Assembly: GCA_963840545.1 (NCBI GenBank)
Contig: CAWIZE010000006.1
Coordinates: forward strand, 315,682 to 379,681
Length of the DNA: 64,000 nt
Reading direction: 5' to 3'
DNA from: an uncultured Pseudomonadota bacterium
GTDB taxonomy: Bacteria > Pseudomonadota > Alphaproteobacteria > Acetobacterales > Acetobacteraceae
Shown in pieces: positions 14,250 through 26,826 of this stretch (positions are counted from its first letter, which is position 1; each line of letters begins with the position of its first letter). Both the position numbers and the translations under genes were made by a program. The notes under the pieces are model-generated. The model was not told the origin of the DNA, made no database searches, and was given only the letters and a program-made list of their open reading frames with translations.

Positions 14250-14942
14250 TCAGGAGGGCACGGCGGCGAGGATCTCATCGGCACTGCCGATCGCCCGATC
14301 CATGCATCCGAGGAACCATCCGAGCCACGGCGTGATGTCGAGATCGCCCCGCTGCGTCGCTTCCAGCCTTTCATAATACGCGTCGCGCTCGCGACGGATC
14401 TGCGCCGACATGCTGTAGAACCGCTGGGAGCTCCGTTCGCTCTGCGCAAGCATCATGTCGGCGATCGCCCGCGCGATCCGCCCGTTGCCGTCGTCGAACG
14501 GATGAACCGTCACGAACCGGAGATGAGCCACCCCCGCCTTCAGCACCGGATCGATCGGCGGGGCGCCGTTGAACCAATCGAGAAACGCGCACATCTCCCG
14601 ATCGAGGCGCCCGGCTTCCGGAGCCTGGGAGTGGGCCCGCTCCCGCCCGACCGGCCCGGAAACGACCTGCATCGGCCCGGCGCGGTCGTCCCGCCATGCC
14701 CCCACCCTGCCGCCGCGCGCGGTCGGGGAAAGCGCGGCGTGCCAGTCGAACAGCCGCTCCGCGGTCAGCGTCTCCGCATATCCCTGGGTCGCGTCGAGCA
14801 TCATCTCGACCACGCCCTCCACGGTCCGGTCCGCCAGGGCGCCGATATCCATCCCGAGGCGGGCGATCGCGACGGCTCCGATAACCTGTTGATAACGCCT
14901 GGAGGGCGCCATTGGCGTCTTTTTATTGCAATTGGGCGCCAT
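14250..14942 (-). pseudogene. Fic/DOC-family protein, 5'-truncated (DUF4172-type N-terminus missing)
   Basis: Fic motif HPFDDGNGRIARA. Similarity to the long Fic family starts only at about RRYQQVIGAVAIARLGMD. The ORF start overlaps the promoter/start region of the divergent higB-like gene. Confidence 0.65.
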
Positions 14943-16750: not shown

Positions 16751-16868
16751 GCGGGCGGGAAAGGGAGTGGAGGGGGAGGAGCAGGGCCCAGAACTTGTCC
16801 CCTCGGGGATTTGCGCATCCCTGTTATTCTGGCTGTATGAACAAATCTTCCGCGAGCGCCTTGAGCGT

Positions 16869-17056
16869 GTCAATCGGCGCGCAAATTCGATCTCGTCCAG
16901 CGTAGGCCAAAATGCTCTGATATTGTGGGGTTTTCGAAAACCTCGAGGGGTCGGGAGCGGCGTCGAACGTCGAGCCCGGCGATCAGCCGATTCGTCGAAG
17001 ATCACCAACGCATTGGAGGTGCTTCGGGACGGGGTCGATTTTGGGCGCCGATTGAC
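16869..17056. mobile_element. MITE-like element, copy 1 (188 bp, ~30-bp terminal inverted repeats)
   Basis: Left end GTCAATCGGCGCGCAAATTCGATCTCGTCC. The right end reverse-complements to GTCAATCGGCGCCCAAAATCGACCCCGTCC. It is about 85% identical to the copy at 18735..18923. Confidence 0.75.
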
Positions 17057-17212
17057 AGTCAATGCAATCTCGGGCCAACCGGCCTATGCGGGAAGCTGAG
17101 CGGCAGCTCCGGCTTCACGGTCTGGGCGCTCAAGCAGGGCAAGCCTCACCCGATGCGCTGCGCTGCGATCGCCGAGGCGGCCCGGCTCTGCATCCGGGCC
17201 TGACGGCTCGGC

Positions 17213-18687: not shown

Positions 18688-18734
18688 TATCGGGGCGCGC
18701 GGGGCTTCCCCGGCGTCGATCAGGCGGCGGGCGC

Positions 18735-18923
18735 GTCAATCGGCGCCCAAATTTGATCCCGTCCAGCATAGGCCAAAATGTTCTGATACTGCGGGGTTTT
18801 TCGGAAACCCCGAGGGGTCGCGAGCGGCGCCGAACGTTGACCCTGCTGATCAGCCAATTCCTCGAAGATTACCAACGCATTGGAGGTGGTTCGGGACGGG
18901 GTCAACTTTGGGCGCCGATTGAC
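18735..18923. mobile_element. MITE-like element, copy 2 (189 bp)
   Basis: Ends GTCAATCGGCGCCCAAATTTGATCCCGTCC and GGACGGGGTCAACTTTGGGCGCCGATTGAC (27 of 30 TIR match). Same orientation as copy 1. Confidence 0.75.
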
Positions 18924-19225
18924 AGGCGGGGACCACGGCGCAGTTCCGGGGATCCCTCCGATCCCCCGGTGCCCAGCGGCGCTGCGCCACACCCCACCCC
19001 ACGCCTCGCCCGCTCGCGTCCCACCCCGCGCGCCGCCTTCCTTCCCCCCTCCCGCACATTTCCGGGTGAGCCCCGCTCGCGTTCGCTCGCCTGGCACCGC
19101 CTTCCTTCCCCTCGCCCGCATTTGGCGGGACAGGGTGGCGAGCGGAGCGAGCCGGGTGAGGGCGCCGCCCACCACCACGCCATCACACGGAGGGCGGCCC
19201 TGGAGTCGCGAGCCACCCCATGCTA

Positions 19226-19965: not shown

Positions 19966-20211
19966 GTGAACGTGTCGATCGGCAATCGGTGGGAGAAATT
20001 CGTCGAGCACGCCGTGAAAAGCGGCCGCTACGGCTCCGCGAGCGAGGTCGTCCGTGAGGGGCTCCGCCTCGTCGAAGAGCGCGAGGCGAGGCTCCGCGCG
20101 CTCAAGGAAACTTTGAGCGCCTCAATCGCCGAGGGCGGCAGCTCCACCGACGATGACGTCGCCGCCGCGATCGCGGCCAAGGCCGCCGAGCTCGCCGCAC
20201 AGGGACTCTGA
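19966..20211 (+). CDS. parD: ParD-family (RHH) antitoxin, orphan (no parE downstream)
   Basis: VSIGNRWEKFVEHAVKSGRYGSASEVVREGLRLVEEREARLRALKETL is the ParD signature. GTG start. Confidence 0.8.
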   Translation: MNVSIGNRWEKFVEHAVKSGRYGSASEVVREGLRLVEEREARLRALKETLSASIAEGGSSTDDDVAAAIAAKAAELAAQGL

Positions 20212-20541
20212 GCGCCGCGTCTGCCACGCCCCAGCCAAGCATCGGGGCTCCGAGCCGCCCGGTGGACGATTACCGTCCAGGGTCGGCCACCTGAAAGTTA
20301 GAGCCACCGAGCGCGGGTAAGCCCAAACAGGATCTCTCCCCGGCTCCTTCCATCACGTCAAAGCAGACGCAGGCTTGCGATTTGAACTTGGCGTCGCGCT
20401 CGTGGCACACCCGCTAAGGTGTTCCCAATACAGCGACTTCCTTGCTTGGAGCAACGCACCCGTCTACCCTCCAACTCGAGGAAACCTGACCAAGCGTTCG
20501 GATCAGACCGGCTGCCAGAGACGGAAGGCAAGTAGCGGGAG

Positions 20542-21939
20542 ATGGACGTCGGGTATGGCCCTGAAGCGGAACGCACGCGCCATCTAGCCGAACTCACGCG
20601 CGGTTGGGGTGCGTGGAGCTCAATTTCGCTCTACCTCGACCGGTGTCAGGTCGACACGCCGGACGAACTCGTTAAGGCCACCTGGAGGCACGTTCAGCAG
20701 CTGAGAGACCAAGTTGGAAAGGTGGTAGACTTCGGAGCGGGGGACGGGCGTTTTGCACGCCACGGCCAGTACTCGGAATACCTCGGGTACGAGATCGACC
20801 GCCACCGCTGCTCCGGCGTCGCCCTCCCGAAAAACGCGACCCTGCTAAACCGCTGCGCCTTCTCAGACGAGATCGTCGACGCAGATCTCTCCATCGGCAA
20901 CCCCCCCTTTGTCCGTAACCAGGATCTGCCCGACGGCTGGCGGCAGAAGGCCTCGACCACGCTACTCCGGAGGACAGGAGTGGCAGTCTCGGGCCTCGCA
21001 AACGCGTGGCAGTACTTTTTCCTGCTATCCCTGGCCAGCCTCAAGCCGAATGGGCTGTGCGCACTGGTCATTCCGTACGAATGGGTGTCGCGTCCTTCGG
21101 CCAGGGAGCTACGCAGCTACCTAATAGAACAACGCTGGAATGTCAGCGTATACCGCCTCGTGGATACGACCTTCAACAGCGTGCTTACGACCTCCTCCGT
21201 TACGATCGTTGATAAGGCCCGGCGCGACGGGAGTTGGCTATATTTCGAGGAGAGAAAATCCGGTGCCTACAGGCCGCTGCAGTCGGCCAGCGGCGCAGCC
21301 GACGGCGTAATGCATTATTTGCGGCGTTCCGAGGTCGATCGCAACAGACCACACGCGATCCGCGGTTTGAGCCCTGGAACGCAGAAGGTACTCACCCTCA
21401 CCGAGGGTGAGCGGGTTCGGTTTGGCCTCCAAACCGACCGAGACGTGGTCCCATGTATCACCACACTGCGCCACCTTCCCGGGAATGTGAAAGAGCTCAA
21501 TGAAACCAACTTTCGGAAATTCTACCGCACGCCCGGCCAAAAGTGCTGGCTGATTAGAACCGACATTAAGCCGAGCCGGACACTCCAAGGGTACCTCAAC
21601 GTCGTGCCCGAAGGCGACTATCAGACCAGCACCTGCCTTGAGCGCGACGAGTGGTGGAAATTCAACATGCCACGCGTTCCCCCGCTGCTTATGGCGATGA
21701 GCTTCAAAGGGGAGTTCCCAAAGGCCGTGCGAAACAAGATCTCCGCTCGCGCGGTCGGTGGAGTGTGCGGAATATACAATCTCACCAAAGCCCAAGCTAC
21801 GCGACTAACGTCCGGGCTCGACGGCCTGGACATCCGCCCCCGCATCGTCGCCCACTCAAACGGGCTGCGAAAGATCGAAATCAACCAGCTCAACGCCCTA
21901 CTCGTCGAGGCGCTTCTCCGCGACCCGATCGCAGACTGA
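20542..21939 (+). CDS. N6-adenine DNA methyltransferase (gamma-type, Eco57I-like), no nuclease domain
   Basis: Motif I VVDFGAGDGRF (20722-20754). Motif IV GNPPF (NPPF at 20899-20910). The ~230-aa C-terminal half has no recognisable nuclease motif and is probably a target-recognition domain. Confidence 0.85.
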   Translation: MDVGYGPEAERTRHLAELTRGWGAWSSISLYLDRCQVDTPDELVKATWRHVQQLRDQVGKVVDFGAGDGRFARHGQYSEYLGYEIDRHRCSGVALPKNATLLNRCAFSDEIVDADLSIGNPPFVRNQDLPDGWRQKASTTLLRRTGVAVSGLANAWQYFFLLSLASLKPNGLCALVIPYEWVSRPSARELRSYLIEQRWNVSVYRLVDTTFNSVLTTSSVTIVDKARRDGSWLYFEERKSGAYRPLQSASGAADGVMHYLRRSEVDRNRPHAIRGLSPGTQKVLTLTEGERVRFGLQTDRDVVPCITTLRHLPGNVKELNETNFRKFYRTPGQKCWLIRTDIKPSRTLQGYLNVVPEGDYQTSTCLERDEWWKFNMPRVPPLLMAMSFKGEFPKAVRNKISARAVGGVCGIYNLTKAQATRLTSGLDGLDIRPRIVAHSNGLRKIEINQLNALLVEALLRDPIAD

Positions 21940-21948
21940 AGGCGAACC

Positions 21949-24204
21949 GTGACAGTCCATCATATCCTCGATAAGGGCACACTGACGTTCAGCATCGAAA
22001 GTCGAATACTTCGCGAACTTGGCGAGCGCCTCGTCAAGCAACCGGAGGTAGCCATCGTCGAATTGGTCAAGAACGCTTACGACGCGGACGCCACCGAATG
22101 CACTATCAGCTACGACCCGGGCAACGCGATCACGGTCAAGGACGACGGGCTCGGCATGACGCTCGCGCGCTTCACTGACGGTTGGATGCGCGTCGGCACA
22201 CGCTCGAAAGAAGCAGTGGGCCTTAGCGACAAGTTTGGTCGTCTTATCACTGGCGAGAAGGGCATCGGCCGCTTTGCGGTCCGATTCCTAGGGCGGGCCC
22301 TCCACCTTGAGTCGGTTGCTGACGACCGCGGCCGAGAACGGCGTACCCGCCTAATCACCGATTTCGACTGGCAGTTATTTGACCAGCACGAGGACCTCGG
22401 CGAAGTACGAGTGCCGTACCGGCTGGAGCGTGCCAACGCAGACACCCCGATCGGCACGACGCTCGCTATTACACGACTGCGACCCGAAATTGCGCGGCTC
22501 GACCTACGAAAGGTGCGAACGGGGTCAATTGGCGTGCTCACGCCGCTGCGATCGTTATTCCGCCGAACGCCGGGCACCGATGCGGCGGATCCCCCGAAAC
22601 GAGCGGACCAACCGGACCCCGGATTCACCCTGGAAATCCAAGAAGGCGAAGGCGAAGCTCCGCAGGACGTCGCGGGCGCGATCCTTGAGGGGTTCGTATT
22701 GCGTGCGCGCCTCCAGCTGAGCGGCGACCGGGTCGATCTTCAGGTCTATCGGCGCGACGAACAGAAGCCGTATTTAGCCGTCGTCGATACCTACCACAAC
22801 CAACTCGGGAAGCTGTACACAGACATCCGGTTCTTTCCACGCAGGAAGGGGGCGTTCTCGGAAATGCCGATCGACGGTCGGCAGGTGTCCACATGGATCG
22901 CCGCCAACTCCGGCATCGCGGTCTTTGACCGTGGATTCCAAGTTCAGCCCTACGGCACACCGTCTGATGATTGGCTACGACTGGCCGCGGACAATGCGCG
23001 CAACGAGCGCGCCCCTCGCTCCGATATCGCCAAGAAGCACTTCCCGATGCCTCCACAGGTCCGGGCGTCGACCTCGGAGAATTGGATGCTACGTCTCCCG
23101 CAGTCAGCCCAACTTGTCGGACTTGTCCAAGTGGAGGGCCGGCGGGCCAATGAGCGCGGAGCAGGCGAAGACGACGAGGGGCTTATCGCTTCGGCCGATC
23201 GAGAAGGGTTTGTAGAAAACAATGCCTTCTCTCAACTCCGAGACTTGGTCCGTGGGGCAGTCGAAACGATTGCGTACGCCGACCGGCGTCTCCAACAGGA
23301 ACACGAACAGACAGCGCGTGACGCGCTTGTCAAATCCATCCGCCGAGAGGCGCAGCTAGCAATCAGCGAAGTTCAATCCAACCGCAATATTGCAGCGCCA
23401 GACAAGGCGAGAATTGTTGCGGCGTTGGCCCAGACCCAACAGCTGGCTGAGCGACAGGAGGAGGTCGCCCGGGAGCGCGAACGGCAGCTAGAAATCATGA
23501 GTCTTCTTGGGGTCGTTGCCGGCTTTATGACGCACGAGTTTGGCATCGCATTGCAGGAGCTGGAGACAACGCACGCTGACCTGCTCGTACTTGCAAAAAC
23601 CCAGCCGAAGTTTATCTCGGTTGAGCAAAGAGTCTCTGACCACATCAAGAGCCTGCGCGAGTTCGTCACCTACTCGTCGGCCTACATCCAAGGCACTCGG
23701 AGCAAGCCAACGACGCCCTACCCTGTCAAACCGAGAATACTGCAAGTGAAGCGCATCTTCGGAAGATACGCCGAAGAGCGAAAAATCGAGGTGGAAATTA
23801 ACACCGAACCCGATCTGATGGCGCCGCCCGTTCCAGTTTCGCTCTACAACGGGATAGCTCTCAACCTTTACACCAATGCCCTCAAAGCGGTGACAGCCAA
23901 AACTGGCACTGGTCCCCGAATGATCGCGTTCCGCGCGTGGAACGACAATCGCTGGCATCACCTCGAGGTGTCCGACACAGGTATCGGCATTCCAACGGCA
24001 CTTCGAAGTCGTGTGTTCGATCCACTATTTACGACAACCAACTCCCGACGCGATCCGCTCGGTTCAGGGATGGGGTTAGGCTTGGCCCTAGTGAAACGAG
24101 GCGCCGAAGCGTTTGGCGGCCGCGCCGAGCTTGTCGCCCCACCACCTGACTTCGCAACCTGCGTGCAAGTCCGCTTACCACTGGACGTCGAGGGTGTCCG
24201 CTGA
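21949..24204 (+). CDS. GHKL (MORC/MutL-type, HATPase_c_3-like) ATPase fused to a histidine-kinase core (H-box plus HATPase_c), cytoplasmic
   Basis: N-terminal Bergerat motifs: ELVKNAYDA (22060-22083), DDGLGM (22141-22158), GEKGIGRF (22252-22275). A coiled-coil-like middle region follows. H-box GFMTHEFG (His529 at 23533-23535). C-terminal N, G1, F and G2 boxes: NLYTNALKA, DTGIGI, VFDPLFTT, GSGMGLGL. No TM segment. GTG start. Confidence 0.85.
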   Translation: MTVHHILDKGTLTFSIESRILRELGERLVKQPEVAIVELVKNAYDADATECTISYDPGNAITVKDDGLGMTLARFTDGWMRVGTRSKEAVGLSDKFGRLITGEKGIGRFAVRFLGRALHLESVADDRGRERRTRLITDFDWQLFDQHEDLGEVRVPYRLERANADTPIGTTLAITRLRPEIARLDLRKVRTGSIGVLTPLRSLFRRTPGTDAADPPKRADQPDPGFTLEIQEGEGEAPQDVAGAILEGFVLRARLQLSGDRVDLQVYRRDEQKPYLAVVDTYHNQLGKLYTDIRFFPRRKGAFSEMPIDGRQVSTWIAANSGIAVFDRGFQVQPYGTPSDDWLRLAADNARNERAPRSDIAKKHFPMPPQVRASTSENWMLRLPQSAQLVGLVQVEGRRANERGAGEDDEGLIASADREGFVENNAFSQLRDLVRGAVETIAYADRRLQQEHEQTARDALVKSIRREAQLAISEVQSNRNIAAPDKARIVAALAQTQQLAERQEEVARERERQLEIMSLLGVVAGFMTHEFGIALQELETTHADLLVLAKTQPKFISVEQRVSDHIKSLREFVTYSSAYIQGTRSKPTTPYPVKPRILQVKRIFGRYAEERKIEVEINTEPDLMAPPVPVSLYNGIALNLYTNALKAVTAKTGTGPRMIAFRAWNDNRWHHLEVSDTGIGIPTALRSRVFDPLFTTTNSRRDPLGSGMGLGLALVKRGAEAFGGRAELVAPPPDFATCVQVRLPLDVEGVR

Positions 24205-24932
24205 TGGCCGAACGAAAACCATCGATCCTCCTGATCGACGACAGAGAAGACCTGTTGGGGGACATGCGGGACCAGCTATCAGCGCTCGTGCCAACGGAAG
24301 AGGCAGAGATTAGGATTTGGGTTCCAAGCGACGCCGCCAAGAGCCCCCTAGAGTCCTTCGGAAGCAAGATTGACGATGAAACAATTCTGGTCGTCACGGA
24401 CTATGACCTCACCGGCAGAGGCGTAACCGGCCTATTCGGGGCCACCATAGTGAGCTGGTGCCAATCGCGCGCATTGCCGGTCGGAGACTTCTCGCGGGCC
24501 AACACGGCCTCGATCCCAAAGGAACCGAATCTTTTCGAACTTCGGGTGCCGACGGTCCCGGAGGAGGCAGCGCAGTTCACTGCTTCGGCCTTTCGAGGTT
24601 TCAAGCGGTTCCGCGACCTCATCGTCGCCAACGAAGGCACGTCGTCTGCGAAGGGCAGCCCGGCAGCCGCACTCGCGTCACTCCTTGGTCGCCCGCACTT
24701 GGAGAGCCAATTTACGCTCTACATGTCCCGACTTGGGTCCGCGAACTCGTCGCTGTTCGACCGTCTTCGGAATTCTGTCTCTCCTGAGGAGGCCCCGGAG
24801 AAAGACAAAAAGGCGCGGCTTCTCGCGTACGTTCTTGGGCACGTTCTGCTGAACGCTGTCCTGAAGTACCCGGACCGATCCTTTCAATACAGGCTCTCTG
24901 TGCTTACGTCGCCACGGTGCCGGCCGAGATAG
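24204..24932 (+). CDS. receiver (REC)-like domain protein, terminated by a TAG that is in frame with the next ORF
   Basis: SILLIDD (Asp12/13) and ILVVTDYDL (Asp66 at 24399-24401) resemble receiver acidic-pocket and phospho-acceptor positions. The start overlaps the upstream stop (TGATG). Confidence 0.6.
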   Translation: MAERKPSILLIDDREDLLGDMRDQLSALVPTEEAEIRIWVPSDAAKSPLESFGSKIDDETILVVTDYDLTGRGVTGLFGATIVSWCQSRALPVGDFSRANTASIPKEPNLFELRVPTVPEEAAQFTASAFRGFKRFRDLIVANEGTSSAKGSPAAALASLLGRPHLESQFTLYMSRLGSANSSLFDRLRNSVSPEEAPEKDKKARLLAYVLGHVLLNAVLKYPDRSFQYRLSVLTSPRCRPR

Positions 24933-25307
24933 GTGCCATCGCCCCATTGTTCGCTGAGGCTAAGTACCGATGGGCCGTTCTCCGAGCAAGGAAGGTACTT
25001 TTGGCGCGAGGACGTCGATGACGCACTCGACACGATGGCAGCCTCGCTTGCAGATGAGGGGTTCGAGGAATTTGGAGATTTTAACAGAAAAGCCGTGGAG
25101 ATTAAGCTTGGTCGATCGCTGGCCACCCACGAATGCACACGTTGCGGAGGCCGAAAGGGCGGCTTTCTTTGCCCTTTTACACAAAGGCCAGTCTGCCAAC
25201 GCCCAGACTGCTCGGTGCCCGCAAGCGGCTGGATCCCTGAGGGCGCGCAGCTATGCCGTGTGGAGCGCGGATTCTATGACGAATGGGCTCCCTTACTTGG
25301 CCTCTGA
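24933..25307 (+). CDS. Cys-rich ORF in the same frame as 24204..24932 (continuation or separate GTG-start gene)
   Basis: It begins at the codon immediately after TAG 24930-24932. It contains CTRCGG....CPF.....CQRPDC......C, a zinc-ribbon-like pattern. Confidence 0.45.
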   Translation: MPSPHCSLRLSTDGPFSEQGRYFWREDVDDALDTMAASLADEGFEEFGDFNRKAVEIKLGRSLATHECTRCGGRKGGFLCPFTQRPVCQRPDCSVPASGWIPEGAQLCRVERGFYDEWAPLLGL

Positions 25308-25323
25308 CGACTGACCCGCGATT

Positions 25324-26110
25324 ATGACTGGAGAGGCGCGGCGCTTGCTGAGGGAGCTACAGACCGCCTGGACGGGCGTACGGGCCGGAATGGCAAGAAT
25401 GTACGGCGCGAGCTCGGTAGAGCCAAAGGACTATCTGCAAATCTTCAAGGTCGAAGACGAAGAATGTGGCCAAATCAAGCTGGACGTCAGCCCAGTGGTG
25501 CTCAACGTTCCCGAGCGAGCAGGCAGTGGTTCCCTTGACCTCTACGTTGCCATCGCGGGATGGCTGTTGTTTGCTACGCGGAGGAACCAGGGCGACCCGA
25601 TCAGGACAGAGCGCTTTGGGACGAAGATTGGATATTTTCGTGCGAAGCGTGCGACACTTCAGCATGTTTATGGCGCGCATTACGACATCGAGGAAACGGC
25701 TCCGGGGCACCCCGTTTTTCACGGGCAAATTGCACCGCAGATGGAGTTCAGCAGCGATGTCCTCAACCTTTTTCATCGAGGCGGGGAACCCGAGAATCTC
25801 GTCAAACCGATCCTGAGGAACGTACCGTGTCCCGACCGCGCAGATGGATGTGTTCTCAGTGATCACCCAGGTTTGCGCAGACCACCTTATGTCGGCAGAC
25901 TCTGCCGCGGAGGTGCGGGAGGCCTTCAACTCGCTCCGAAAAGCCTGCGACTTTTTCACAGGCGCTGCAAATCGGCTAACGTACCTGAACAGCGGACCCG
26001 CAATATCCTGCTACCGGTCAACCCACTGGTACTCGGCACCACCGCCAGGCAGCGCCGCCGCCCGCGCGCAGCAAGGTAACGCACCCGCGCAGCCATTGTG
26101 CAAGTACTAA
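25324..26110 (+). pseudogene. unknown protein, apparently frameshifted (frame of 25324 switches to frame of 25844)
   Basis: After about 25817 the first frame becomes Arg-rich junk. The next frame, which has a stop at 25814-25816, continues with protein-like PTAQMDVFSVITQVCADHLMSADSAAEVREAFNSLRKACDFF up to 26110. Confidence 0.5.
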
Positions 26111-26315: not shown

Positions 26316-26576
26316 ATGACCAACGCCCAAGCCCTGATCGATAAGATCAAAACCCTGCCGCCCGAGCGGTTGGGCGAGGTCGAGGATTTCGTGGACTTTA
26401 TCGCCGCGAAATCGCGGCGGCTCGCCGCATTGGACCGGCTGCTCGCAATCGCCCCCGCGCTGGAAGCGGCCGGTGCGCCGCCGATCACGGAAGACGAGAT
26501 TCAGGCCGAAGTCGACGCCGTCCGCGCCGTCCGCGCCGCCCGGCAAATCCGAGGCGGCGGCGCGGATCGTCCTTGA
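26316..26576 (+). CDS. antitoxin-like protein (DUF2281-like N-terminus)
   Basis: ALIDKIKTLPPERLGEVEDFVDFI is typical of DUF2281-type antitoxins paired with PIN toxins. Confidence 0.6.
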   Translation: MTNAQALIDKIKTLPPERLGEVEDFVDFIAAKSRRLAALDRLLAIAPALEAAGAPPITEDEIQAEVDAVRAVRAARQIRGGGADRP

Positions 26577-26826
26577 CACCAATGTCGCCCTCTCCGCCCC
26601 GCTCCGGCGTGGCACGCCCTATCGGCTCCTCGACACCATCCGGCATCGGGAACAGATGCAGCTCTTCACGAGCATCGTGCTGCTGGAGGAATTGGCCGAG
26701 GTTCTGATCAGGCCAGCGTCATCGAAGCGCCTTGCCATCATCGGCCTCACCGCCAGCCAGATGCTCGCCGATTACGTCAATTCCGTCGATCTGGTGGCGC
26801 CGCTCGCGGTCCCCGCCACCCAATAA
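26563..26826 (+). pseudogene. PIN-domain (PIN_3-like) toxin remnant, no nearby start codon and 3'-truncated
   Basis: RIVLDTNVALSA.......LLD.......LFTS..LLEELAEVL matches the N-terminal two thirds of the family. The ORF ends before the expected RD..D and TGD acidic motifs. Confidence 0.5.

Follow-up and report, generated by a model that had tools for sequence, protein, structure and literature searches.

A horizontally transferred four-gene cassette joining a proposed two-component relay to a DNA methylase, related to the anti-phage system Ambrosia

Relation to Ambrosia and to the HEF_HK kinases

To our knowledge, two-component signalling is used by very few anti-phage systems, and we know of no account of how a GHKL 'sensor' reads infection or the state of DNA, even for Ambrosia. 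Ambrosia, reported from Pseudomonas aeruginosa by van den Berg et al. in a 2025 preprint, consists of AbrR (an XRE protein), AbrA (an N6 methylase), AbrB (a double-HATPase kinase), AbrC (a receiver, REC, protein) and AbrD (an HNH protein), and it blocks phages (10.1101/2025.09.30.679545). Mutating the predicted functional domain of each component, in constructs that included AbrB N40A and AbrC D60A, abolished defence; infection induced reporters that stood in the position of abrA or abrD, and the authors propose a transcriptional relay; methylation by AbrA did not protect phage (10.1101/2025.09.30.679545). For the HMMs of the four main components, the authors set bit-score thresholds of 100 (AbrA), 500 (AbrB), 150 (AbrC) and 200 (AbrD) (10.1101/2025.09.30.679545). 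Four years earlier, Bellieny-Rabelo et al. (2021) had described soluble kinases that combine HATPase_c_3, a new DHp domain called HEF_HK, and HATPase_c. Of these kinases, 91.6% are linked to receiver-like Response_reg_2 proteins, restriction-modification genes (mostly C5 methylases, Vsr and HNH_2) are enriched nearby, and related genes are induced during plant infection and competition (PMC8011034). Here, we analyze a cassette of four co-directional genes, g1 to g4, in a 64,000-nucleotide stretch (the window) of contig CAWIZE010000006.1 from an uncultured Acetobacteraceae bacterium, and compare it with these systems.

The cassette and Ambrosia share the order methylase, kinase, receiver protein and small fourth protein. 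In both, an N6-adenine methylase adjoins a double-HATPase kinase of closely similar length (747 amino acids (aa) in AbrB, 751 aa in g2), and both reside in variable genomic regions. With the Ambrosia sequences taken from Table S1 of the preprint, BLASTP aligned AbrB (residues 1-400) with g2 at 26% identity over ~440 aa (E 1.7e-21), and a hidden Markov model (HMM) built from the g2 family matched AbrB with E 1.5e-33. In these proteins, N42 of g2 corresponds to the essential N40 of AbrB. The match between the receivers reached significance only when family profiles were compared with each other (hhalign 96.6%, E 5.9e-10, 133 columns); the single AbrC sequence did not match the g3 profile significantly. 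The essential D60 of AbrC aligns with D66 of g3. Judged by these alignments, g2 and the receiver domain of g3 are homologous to AbrB and AbrC.

The cassette is not Ambrosia in the strict sense, and it departs from it most in the fourth protein. Its methylase belongs to another subfamily than AbrA, and neither BLASTP nor HMM comparison matched g1 to AbrA; real AbrA relatives (35-37% identity) are found in loci L077, L083 and L088 of the wider family. Whereas AbrC has 209 aa, g3 has 367 aa and carries a helical and Cys-rich extension of ~250 extra residues. AbrD is an HNH endonuclease, whereas g4 has no HNH match in Pfam and no similarity to AbrD by BLASTP or hhalign. The small gene upstream differs as well: AbrR is an XRE protein, whereas the gene upstream of the cassette in the window encodes a ParD-type ribbon-helix-helix (RHH) protein, and no XRE gene lies upstream of the cassette there. 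Some related loci have a small DNA-binding gene upstream, which belongs to HTH_3 in L010, to HTH_37 in L017 and L024, and to MerR in L019 and L029. XRE-type genes occur in L010, L017 and L024 only. Lastly, Ambrosia is found in Pseudomonadales and the present cassette mainly in Alpha- and Betaproteobacteria, Acidobacteriota and Actinomycetota.

The kinases described in 2021 share with g2 the succession of HATPase_c_3, a DHp domain with a His-Glu-Phe H-box, and HATPase_c. They also share with the cassette an adjoining receiver-like protein that lacks any other known domain and a strong link to methylases (71/72 and 37/39 loci, respectively, in the metagenomic sample described below). The family models themselves did not match: at E<=10, Pfam HEF_HK (PF19191) found nothing in the isolated DHp of g2, though its H-box reads T-H-E-F-G, and Response_reg_2 (PF19192) found nothing in the N-terminal 132 aa of g3. 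The paper describes no g4 family and shows no function (PMC8011034).

Because the 2021 paper gave the architecture and the 2025 preprint named and validated Ambrosia, the coupling of a relay to DNA modification is not undescribed. The original prediction for this locus, made from the sequence without database searches, had been aware of no named system in which a methylase/GHKL pair is linked to a His-Asp relay, and its claim of an undescribed coupling has to be given up. Its broader proposal survives in part: the module is real and probably serves defence, but the class is not a new one, having been described and named before. Within this family of cassettes, only the Ambrosia branch has been validated by experiment. 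What novelty is left lies in the output region of g3 and in the g4 family, which match no known family in our sequence searches.

Detocs (DtcA/DtcB/DtcC; Rousset et al. 2023) reportedly joins a TPR-type sensor kinase and a buffer receiver to another receiver that carries a PNP-type ATP nucleosidase. Like the relay proposed here for the cassette, Detocs uses a His-Asp phosphorelay for anti-phage signalling to a receiver-linked effector; it is not known to include a methylase or a GHKL sensor. We found no TPR or PNP_UDP Pfam domain in g1-g4, and only one receiver protein. The comparison with MADS, Hma, DISARM and BREX that had been called for showed that none of them fits beyond weak PADLOC matches at the level of the methylase: g1 matched mad2 (5.4e-05), DrmMI (3.8e-04) and PglX (0.03), no PADLOC component of MADS (the other mad genes), DISARM (DrmA/B/C) or BREX (PglZ, BrxC, BrxL) matched g2, g3 or g4, and Hma, with its helicase and ATPase, gave no PADLOC match at all.

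The four proteins and the conservation of the cassette

The open reading frame (ORF) list of the window returned the coordinates and junctions on which the original prediction had based its single operon (Table 1): g1 and g2 are separated by 9 nucleotides (nt), g2 and g3 overlap by 1 nt, and g3 and g4 are separated by 16 nt. The block had also been called AT-richer than its surroundings, and indeed its G+C content across 21-26 kb is 0.58-0.62, against 0.65-0.74 in the flanks. A scan of the locus for promoters and terminators gave no signal above shuffled expectation. In related loci, the stop and start codons of the cassette genes usually overlap. Genes g1-g4 are a conserved unit of four translationally coupled genes, in line with the operon reading. 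The domain readings made at the outset likewise agree with the family, motif and structure searches that follow.

Table 1. Coordinates of the cassette genes and of neighbouring features in the window
Feature	Position	Strand	Description
g1	20542-21939	+	465 aa, intact; gamma-class N6-adenine DNA methyltransferase
g2	21949-24204	+	751 aa, intact; double-ATPase histidine kinase
g3	24204-25307 (pieces 24204-24932 and 24933-25307)	+	receiver-domain protein, 367 aa once repaired
g4	25324-26110 (overlapping pieces 25324-26079 and 25844-26110)	+	stand-alone protein, 261 aa once repaired
ParD-family ribbon-helix-helix gene	19966-20211	+	Pfam ParD_antitoxin, E 4.4e-18; 330 nt upstream of g1
Antitoxin-like ORF and PIN-domain toxin gene	26316-26826		island edge
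Fic/DOC-family protein	14250-14942	-	230 aa
~195-nt element, first copy	16865-17058		
~195-nt element, second copy	18731-18925		

The kinase g2 begins with a GHKL ATPase of the MutL/paraMORC type; a middle region and a coiled coil then lead to a DHp domain with H529-E530-F531 and to a CA domain. Pfam finds HATPase_c_3 (4.4e-19) over residues 32-127 and HATPase_c (3.6e-21) over residues 636-746. Among solved structures, the N-terminal GHKL domain matches MutL and the C-terminal half matches histidine kinases, including their DHp (E 1.5e-13), so that the MutL/MORC-type ATPase and the full kinase core noted at the outset are both present. In an alignment of 41 g2 homologues, two residues of 'MTHEFG', H529 (encoded at 23533-23535) and E530, are invariant, as are the motifs of the N-terminal ATPase (N42, D65/G67/G69 and G102-G107) and of the CA domain (N639/N643, D676/G678/G680 and G705-G711). 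No transmembrane sensor domain was predicted in g2, a reading made without a formal test for one.

The methylase g1 matches Eco57I (4e-09) and N6_Mtase in Pfam, and its best PADLOC matches are to MTase_II (E 1.4e-17). Together with FGAGDG and NPPF, which can be read in its translation, these matches agree with its assignment as a gamma-type N6-adenine methyltransferase.

The translation of g3 starts with LLIDD...VVTDYDL, which contains D12, D13 and D66 (codon 24399-24401). The AlphaFold2 (AF2) model of g3 (predicted local distance difference test, pLDDT, 89.9; predicted template-modelling score, pTM, 0.89) shows a REC domain from residue 1 to ~118, which Foldseek superposed on the receiver domains of RcsB (5i4c; probability 1.0, target template-modelling (TM) score 0.53) and of 3heb (probability 0.98). 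D12, D13, D66, S97, R114 and P116 are invariant in the family alignment. D66 is kept in 59/59 sequences. In the model, S97 and R114 appear to take the positions of the canonical receiver Thr and Lys. The acidic pocket and the phospho-acceptor Asp of a receiver are conserved in g3, and it carries the Cys-rich tail that had been noted. The remaining ~250 residues comprise a helical region, a Cys/His-rich module (H..CxxC..C..C..C; H306, C308, C311, C320, C328 and C333) and a C-terminal helix. This output region has no family or fold assignment. Scans of g3 against Pfam, NCBIfam and PADLOC gave no match, its profile found only noise among PDB sequences, and no helix-turn-helix (HTH) family was detected.

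Proteins of the g4 family are ~240-260 aa long and share the core H-Y-D...H-P-x-F-H-x-Q...R-x-P...M-D...D-H. Numbered on P0243 (one less than numbering based on L006), the invariant clusters are H119-Y-D, H129-P-x-F-H133-x-Q, R171-x-P...M-D178, D189-H190 and C232-x-R-x-x-H237-W-Y. In the AF2 model (pLDDT 90.3, pTM 0.87), a long helix at the N-terminus precedes seven antiparallel strands, and further helices form the C-terminus. As the original prediction had recognized no motif in this protein, so our searches led to no assignment: Pfam, PADLOC and NCBIfam gave no match, the profile found only noise among PDB sequences, and Foldseek against PDB and BFVD gave no match at E<=1e-3. We rejected two candidate folds. 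The weak Foldseek matches to p32 or NTF2-like proteins have TM scores of ~0.16-0.24, and a 2-His-1-carboxylate dioxygenase (HxD...H) is contradicted by a spacing of ~12 residues and by the lack of a jelly-roll match. A profile search of 1.84 billion representatives returned 469 matches (clusters at 50% identity), nearly all of them stand-alone proteins of ~240 aa.

The four families travel together. Relatives of g2 number more than 1,400 matches, and the top 120 are all ~750 aa long and 61-75% identical to it. We took related loci from genomes, assemblies, plasmids, metagenomes and IMG/VR. Wherever the kinase of a distinct locus shares at least 33% identity with g2 and the contig extends far enough, g1 lies at position -1 to the kinase, g3 at +1 and g4 at +2, with one exception. 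The same four families occur in more than 20 independent loci, always in this order but for locus L027, in which the methylase lies downstream on the opposite strand; in every other close locus it is directly upstream of the kinase. Since the four families recur together across genomes, the lack of co-occurrence that would have spoken against a functional module is not seen, and the methylase is part of this module rather than of a restriction-modification system encoded elsewhere.

The hosts span four bacterial phyla. They include Betaproteobacteria (Undibacterium, Paraburkholderia), Alphaproteobacteria (Caulobacterales, Sphingomonas, Bradyrhizobium, Mesorhizobium), and metagenome-assembled genomes of Bryobacteraceae (Acidobacteriota) and of Actinomycetota. 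Candidates for an intact copy are the loci of Sphingomonas carotinifaciens (WP_413061946/WP_413061945) and of Paraburkholderia largidicola (PPGU16_RS40240-40260). Neighbours at related loci include a MobA/MobL relaxase, TraD, TrwB, Replic_Relax and ArdC, and AbiEii adjoins some loci. TnsC/TniQ-like transposition genes, of a Tn7-like transposon, adjoin some loci as well, and a terminase-like ORF is a further neighbour; both were read from translations rather than from family scans. Five proviral contigs of IMG/VR hold the entire cassette. The cassette is a conserved, horizontally transferred mobile unit, and these conjugative, transposon and proviral neighbours, with AbiEii and the toxin-antitoxin genes of the window, bear out the defence-island context proposed for it.

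A scan of metagenome contigs with the g2 alignment widened the view to 80 loci, with kinases 23-55% identical to g2, whose neighbouring genes we clustered. The +1 slot holds a receiver-type protein in 71 of the 72 loci with enough sequence; 56 of these 71 proteins fall into a g3-like cluster of ~365 aa with near-invariant D13 and D66. A DNA methylase is present in 37 of the 39 loci long enough to judge, within a span from two genes upstream to four downstream, usually an N6 methylase (upstream or three genes downstream) and in a minority a C5 methylase with Vsr. The +2 slot is taken by the g4 superfamily in 50 of the 65 loci that reach it (g4 family 14, cluster c2 29, cluster c5 7). Profile comparison by hhalign links c2 to g4 at 93.7% and c5 to c2 at 95.5%, and g4 and c2 have an H-x-D...P-x-x-H...R core in common. 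Other occupants of this slot are HNH proteins (L058, L077 and L090, which are Ambrosia proper), metallo-beta-lactamase-fold hydrolases and other small proteins. In this sample, which is biased toward g2 relatives, the g3/g4 form greatly outnumbers the HNH form, and among environmental bacteria no other form of the class seems to be as common.

More distant relatives add two variants. On 41 Campylobacter conjugative plasmids of the pTet type, among them the C. jejuni plasmid NZ_CP092024.1 (L012), a related double-HATPase kinase is accompanied by a response regulator of 340 aa, whose C-terminal domain has no assignment, and by dcm in convergent orientation. The papers we consulted contain no description of this apparent variant. 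In three distant loci (L036, L052 and L063), a PAPS-reductase-like gene (weak Pfam match, E 0.0011) stands before the kinase at the usual place of the methylase, which hints at a different DNA-modification partner.

A proposed relay and its alternatives

We lean towards reading the block as a transferred member of a family of defence cassettes in which DNA modification is tied to a two-component relay, with signalling that would run from g2 through g3 to g4. In the proposed sequence of events, g1 would methylate adenines of the resident DNA, and the N-terminal MutL/paraMORC-like ATPase of g2 would sense, within the cytoplasm, either the state of the DNA or an infection. This sensor would drive autophosphorylation at H529, from which the phosphoryl group would move to D66 of g3. 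Phospho-g3 would then, via its helical and Cys-rich output region, turn on g4, either directly or by induction of the operon. Sister systems hold HNH or metallo-beta-lactamase hydrolases in the slot of g4. From this position and from its His/Asp cluster, g4 would be the likely effector and probably acts as a metal-dependent hydrolase.

Several points weigh against this reading. The self-marking step may be wrong for this class, because methylation by AbrA did not protect phage. By sequence, g1 is not an orthologue of AbrA. Phosphotransfer from g2 to g3 is not certain, because the receiver Lys, as read from the model and the alignment, is apparently an Arg (R114). The protein g4 has no recognizable catalytic fold, and its effector role is argued from its position and its invariant His/Asp cluster only. 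PADLOC has no match for the kinase part of g2, for g3 or for g4, and the defence function of this g3/g4 branch is a probable one that draws on homology and context. Finally, g3 and g4 are both broken in the window.

This last point concerns the copy rather than the family. The original prediction had suspected that the third and fourth genes are disrupted, and we could locate three single-base indels. In g3, one G has been lost after 24873 and one C gained at 24968; the two compensate each other, such that the frame is off for 93 nt, a part that contains a TAG at 24930-24932, and is then restored. In g4, there is one extra C at 25826. Repair of the three bases yields a g3 of 367 aa and a g4 of 261 aa that align end to end with their homologues. 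Because the three indels break g3 and g4, the cassette in the window is presumably inactive, unless they are assembly errors, and we put the chances of its inactivity at about even.

On one alternative reading, the locus is a decaying relic: the indels are genuine, g3 and g4 have become pseudogenes, and of the four proteins the methylase and the kinase alone could still be produced. Three frame-breaking indels within 1 kb, and the decay of nearby island genes (a truncated PIN gene and a short Fic protein), speak for it. Against it, g1 and g2 are full length and intact, each of the three changes falls in a short homopolymer context, as is typical of assembly error, the source record is a metagenome-type contig, and the near-identical but noisy contig L005 lacks two of the three indels. 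We regard the two sides as evenly balanced. L005 itself was rejected as an arbiter, being too noisy (94% identity with 132 gap openings).

Both insertions are an extra C after GTAC, in AAGTAC[C]GATGG (24962-24968) and AACGTAC[C]GTGTC (25819-25826). A systematic error of basecalling or assembly at one sequence context might explain this, and so might a mutational hotspot. Two public protein predictions, P0460 (596 aa) and P0393 (376 aa), look like g3-g4 fusions. We rejected them as true fusions: they are frameshift read-throughs that start in the Cys-rich 3' part of g3, so that breakage or mis-assembly of this region is not confined to the window.

The same parts could also work as a purely transcriptional relay, in which phospho-g3 binds DNA and induces g1 and g4 upon infection, and g4, instead of being activated allosterically, acts in the manner of a type IV enzyme on DNA marked by g1. 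The infection-induced abrA and abrD reporters, together with AbrA methylation that leaves phage unprotected, fit this arrangement, as do the small XRE, MerR or RHH genes upstream at several loci, and in the g3 model the helical region with short strands that follows the receiver could be a DNA-binding module. However, no HTH family was detected in g3 and no fold match favours DNA binding; moreover, a regulator and its targets would here be made together, because the four genes are translationally coupled. We consider this relay credible but doubtful.

A function outside immunity appears unlikely to us. Under such an explanation, the cassette would place an orphan adenine methylase under cytoplasmic two-component control, for an epigenetic purpose, or would serve the element that carries it, by stabilization or by exclusion of rivals. 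The four proteins contain no recognizable nuclease domain, the cassette rides on conjugative and transposable elements, and the related genes of PMC8011034 respond to plant infection and competition, all of which this explanation would accommodate. It is opposed by the homology to a phage-blocking system, by the HNH, metallo-beta-lactamase and Vsr nucleases that sister branches carry in the same slots, and by the patchy spread across phyla among defence-island neighbours.

A conventional GHKL-type restriction system of the BbrUII/HgiDII kind, with g2 as restriction subunit and g1 as its cognate methylase, is highly improbable: g2 shares with these and with paraMORC/GHKL proteins a similar N-terminal GHKL ATPase adjoining a methylase, and it matches NCBIfam restrict_BbrUII (E 1.8e-20) and PADLOC REase_II models, but the former match is limited to the 176 residues 13-188 and to 73 bits, against a cut-off of 550 bits, and the rest of g2 is a DHp and CA kinase core in place of any nuclease or S5-type C-terminal part, a domain content that excludes a plain GHKL restriction enzyme.

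Returning to the relay from g2 through g3 to g4, we suggest a bolder extension of it, tentatively and at somewhat less than even chance. The g4 superfamily (c3, c2 and c5; at least 469 clusters) may represent a new enzyme fold. It would supply the effector in the largest branch of an immunity that is coupled to kinases and associated with methylases, and phosphorylated g3, with a Cys-rich output module that would be new as well, would switch it on. Ambrosia, with its HNH protein, would then be a minor offshoot of a class found in at least four phyla. In this branch, a protein that no library recognizes stands in place of the familiar HNH nuclease. Learning what g4 does and how phospho-g3 controls it could bring a new effector chemistry to light and would clarify the role of a methylase where methylation may not mean 'self', and hundreds of gene quartets annotated as 'sensor histidine kinase / hypothetical protein' could be re-annotated as one candidate defence module.

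The toxin-antitoxin island around the cassette

A Pfam scan of the neighbouring genes in the window found MqsR/MqsA, ParD, Fic and a truncated PIN, the families of the toxin-antitoxin island in which the cassette had been placed by the original prediction; MazE/PemK was found on contig L005. The ParD gene upstream of g1 may be a regulator of the cassette or just an orphan antitoxin. It might have been recruited as a regulator, because other cassette loci have an XRE, HTH_37 or MerR gene in its place. Between ParD and g1 (20212-20541), a search for a ParE remnant found no ParE-like frame.

At the island edge downstream of g4, a PIN-domain toxin gene comes after an antitoxin-like ORF. It ends at 117 aa, and none of the frames continues it. 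As a fumarate hydratase gene begins 76 nt downstream, the PIN toxin is a truncated remnant at this edge. On the opposite side of the low-G+C island lies the Fic/DOC-family protein, which has the motif HPFDDGNGRIAR and, at only 230 aa, is possibly truncated at its N-terminus. Between these edges, two copies of the ~195-nt element, 88-89% identical to each other, flank the MqsR/MqsA pair and a 173-aa ORF. Each copy ends in inverted repeats of ~30 nt (GTCAATCGGCGCCCAAATTTGATCCCGTCC), and the element looks like a miniature inverted-repeat transposable element (MITE).

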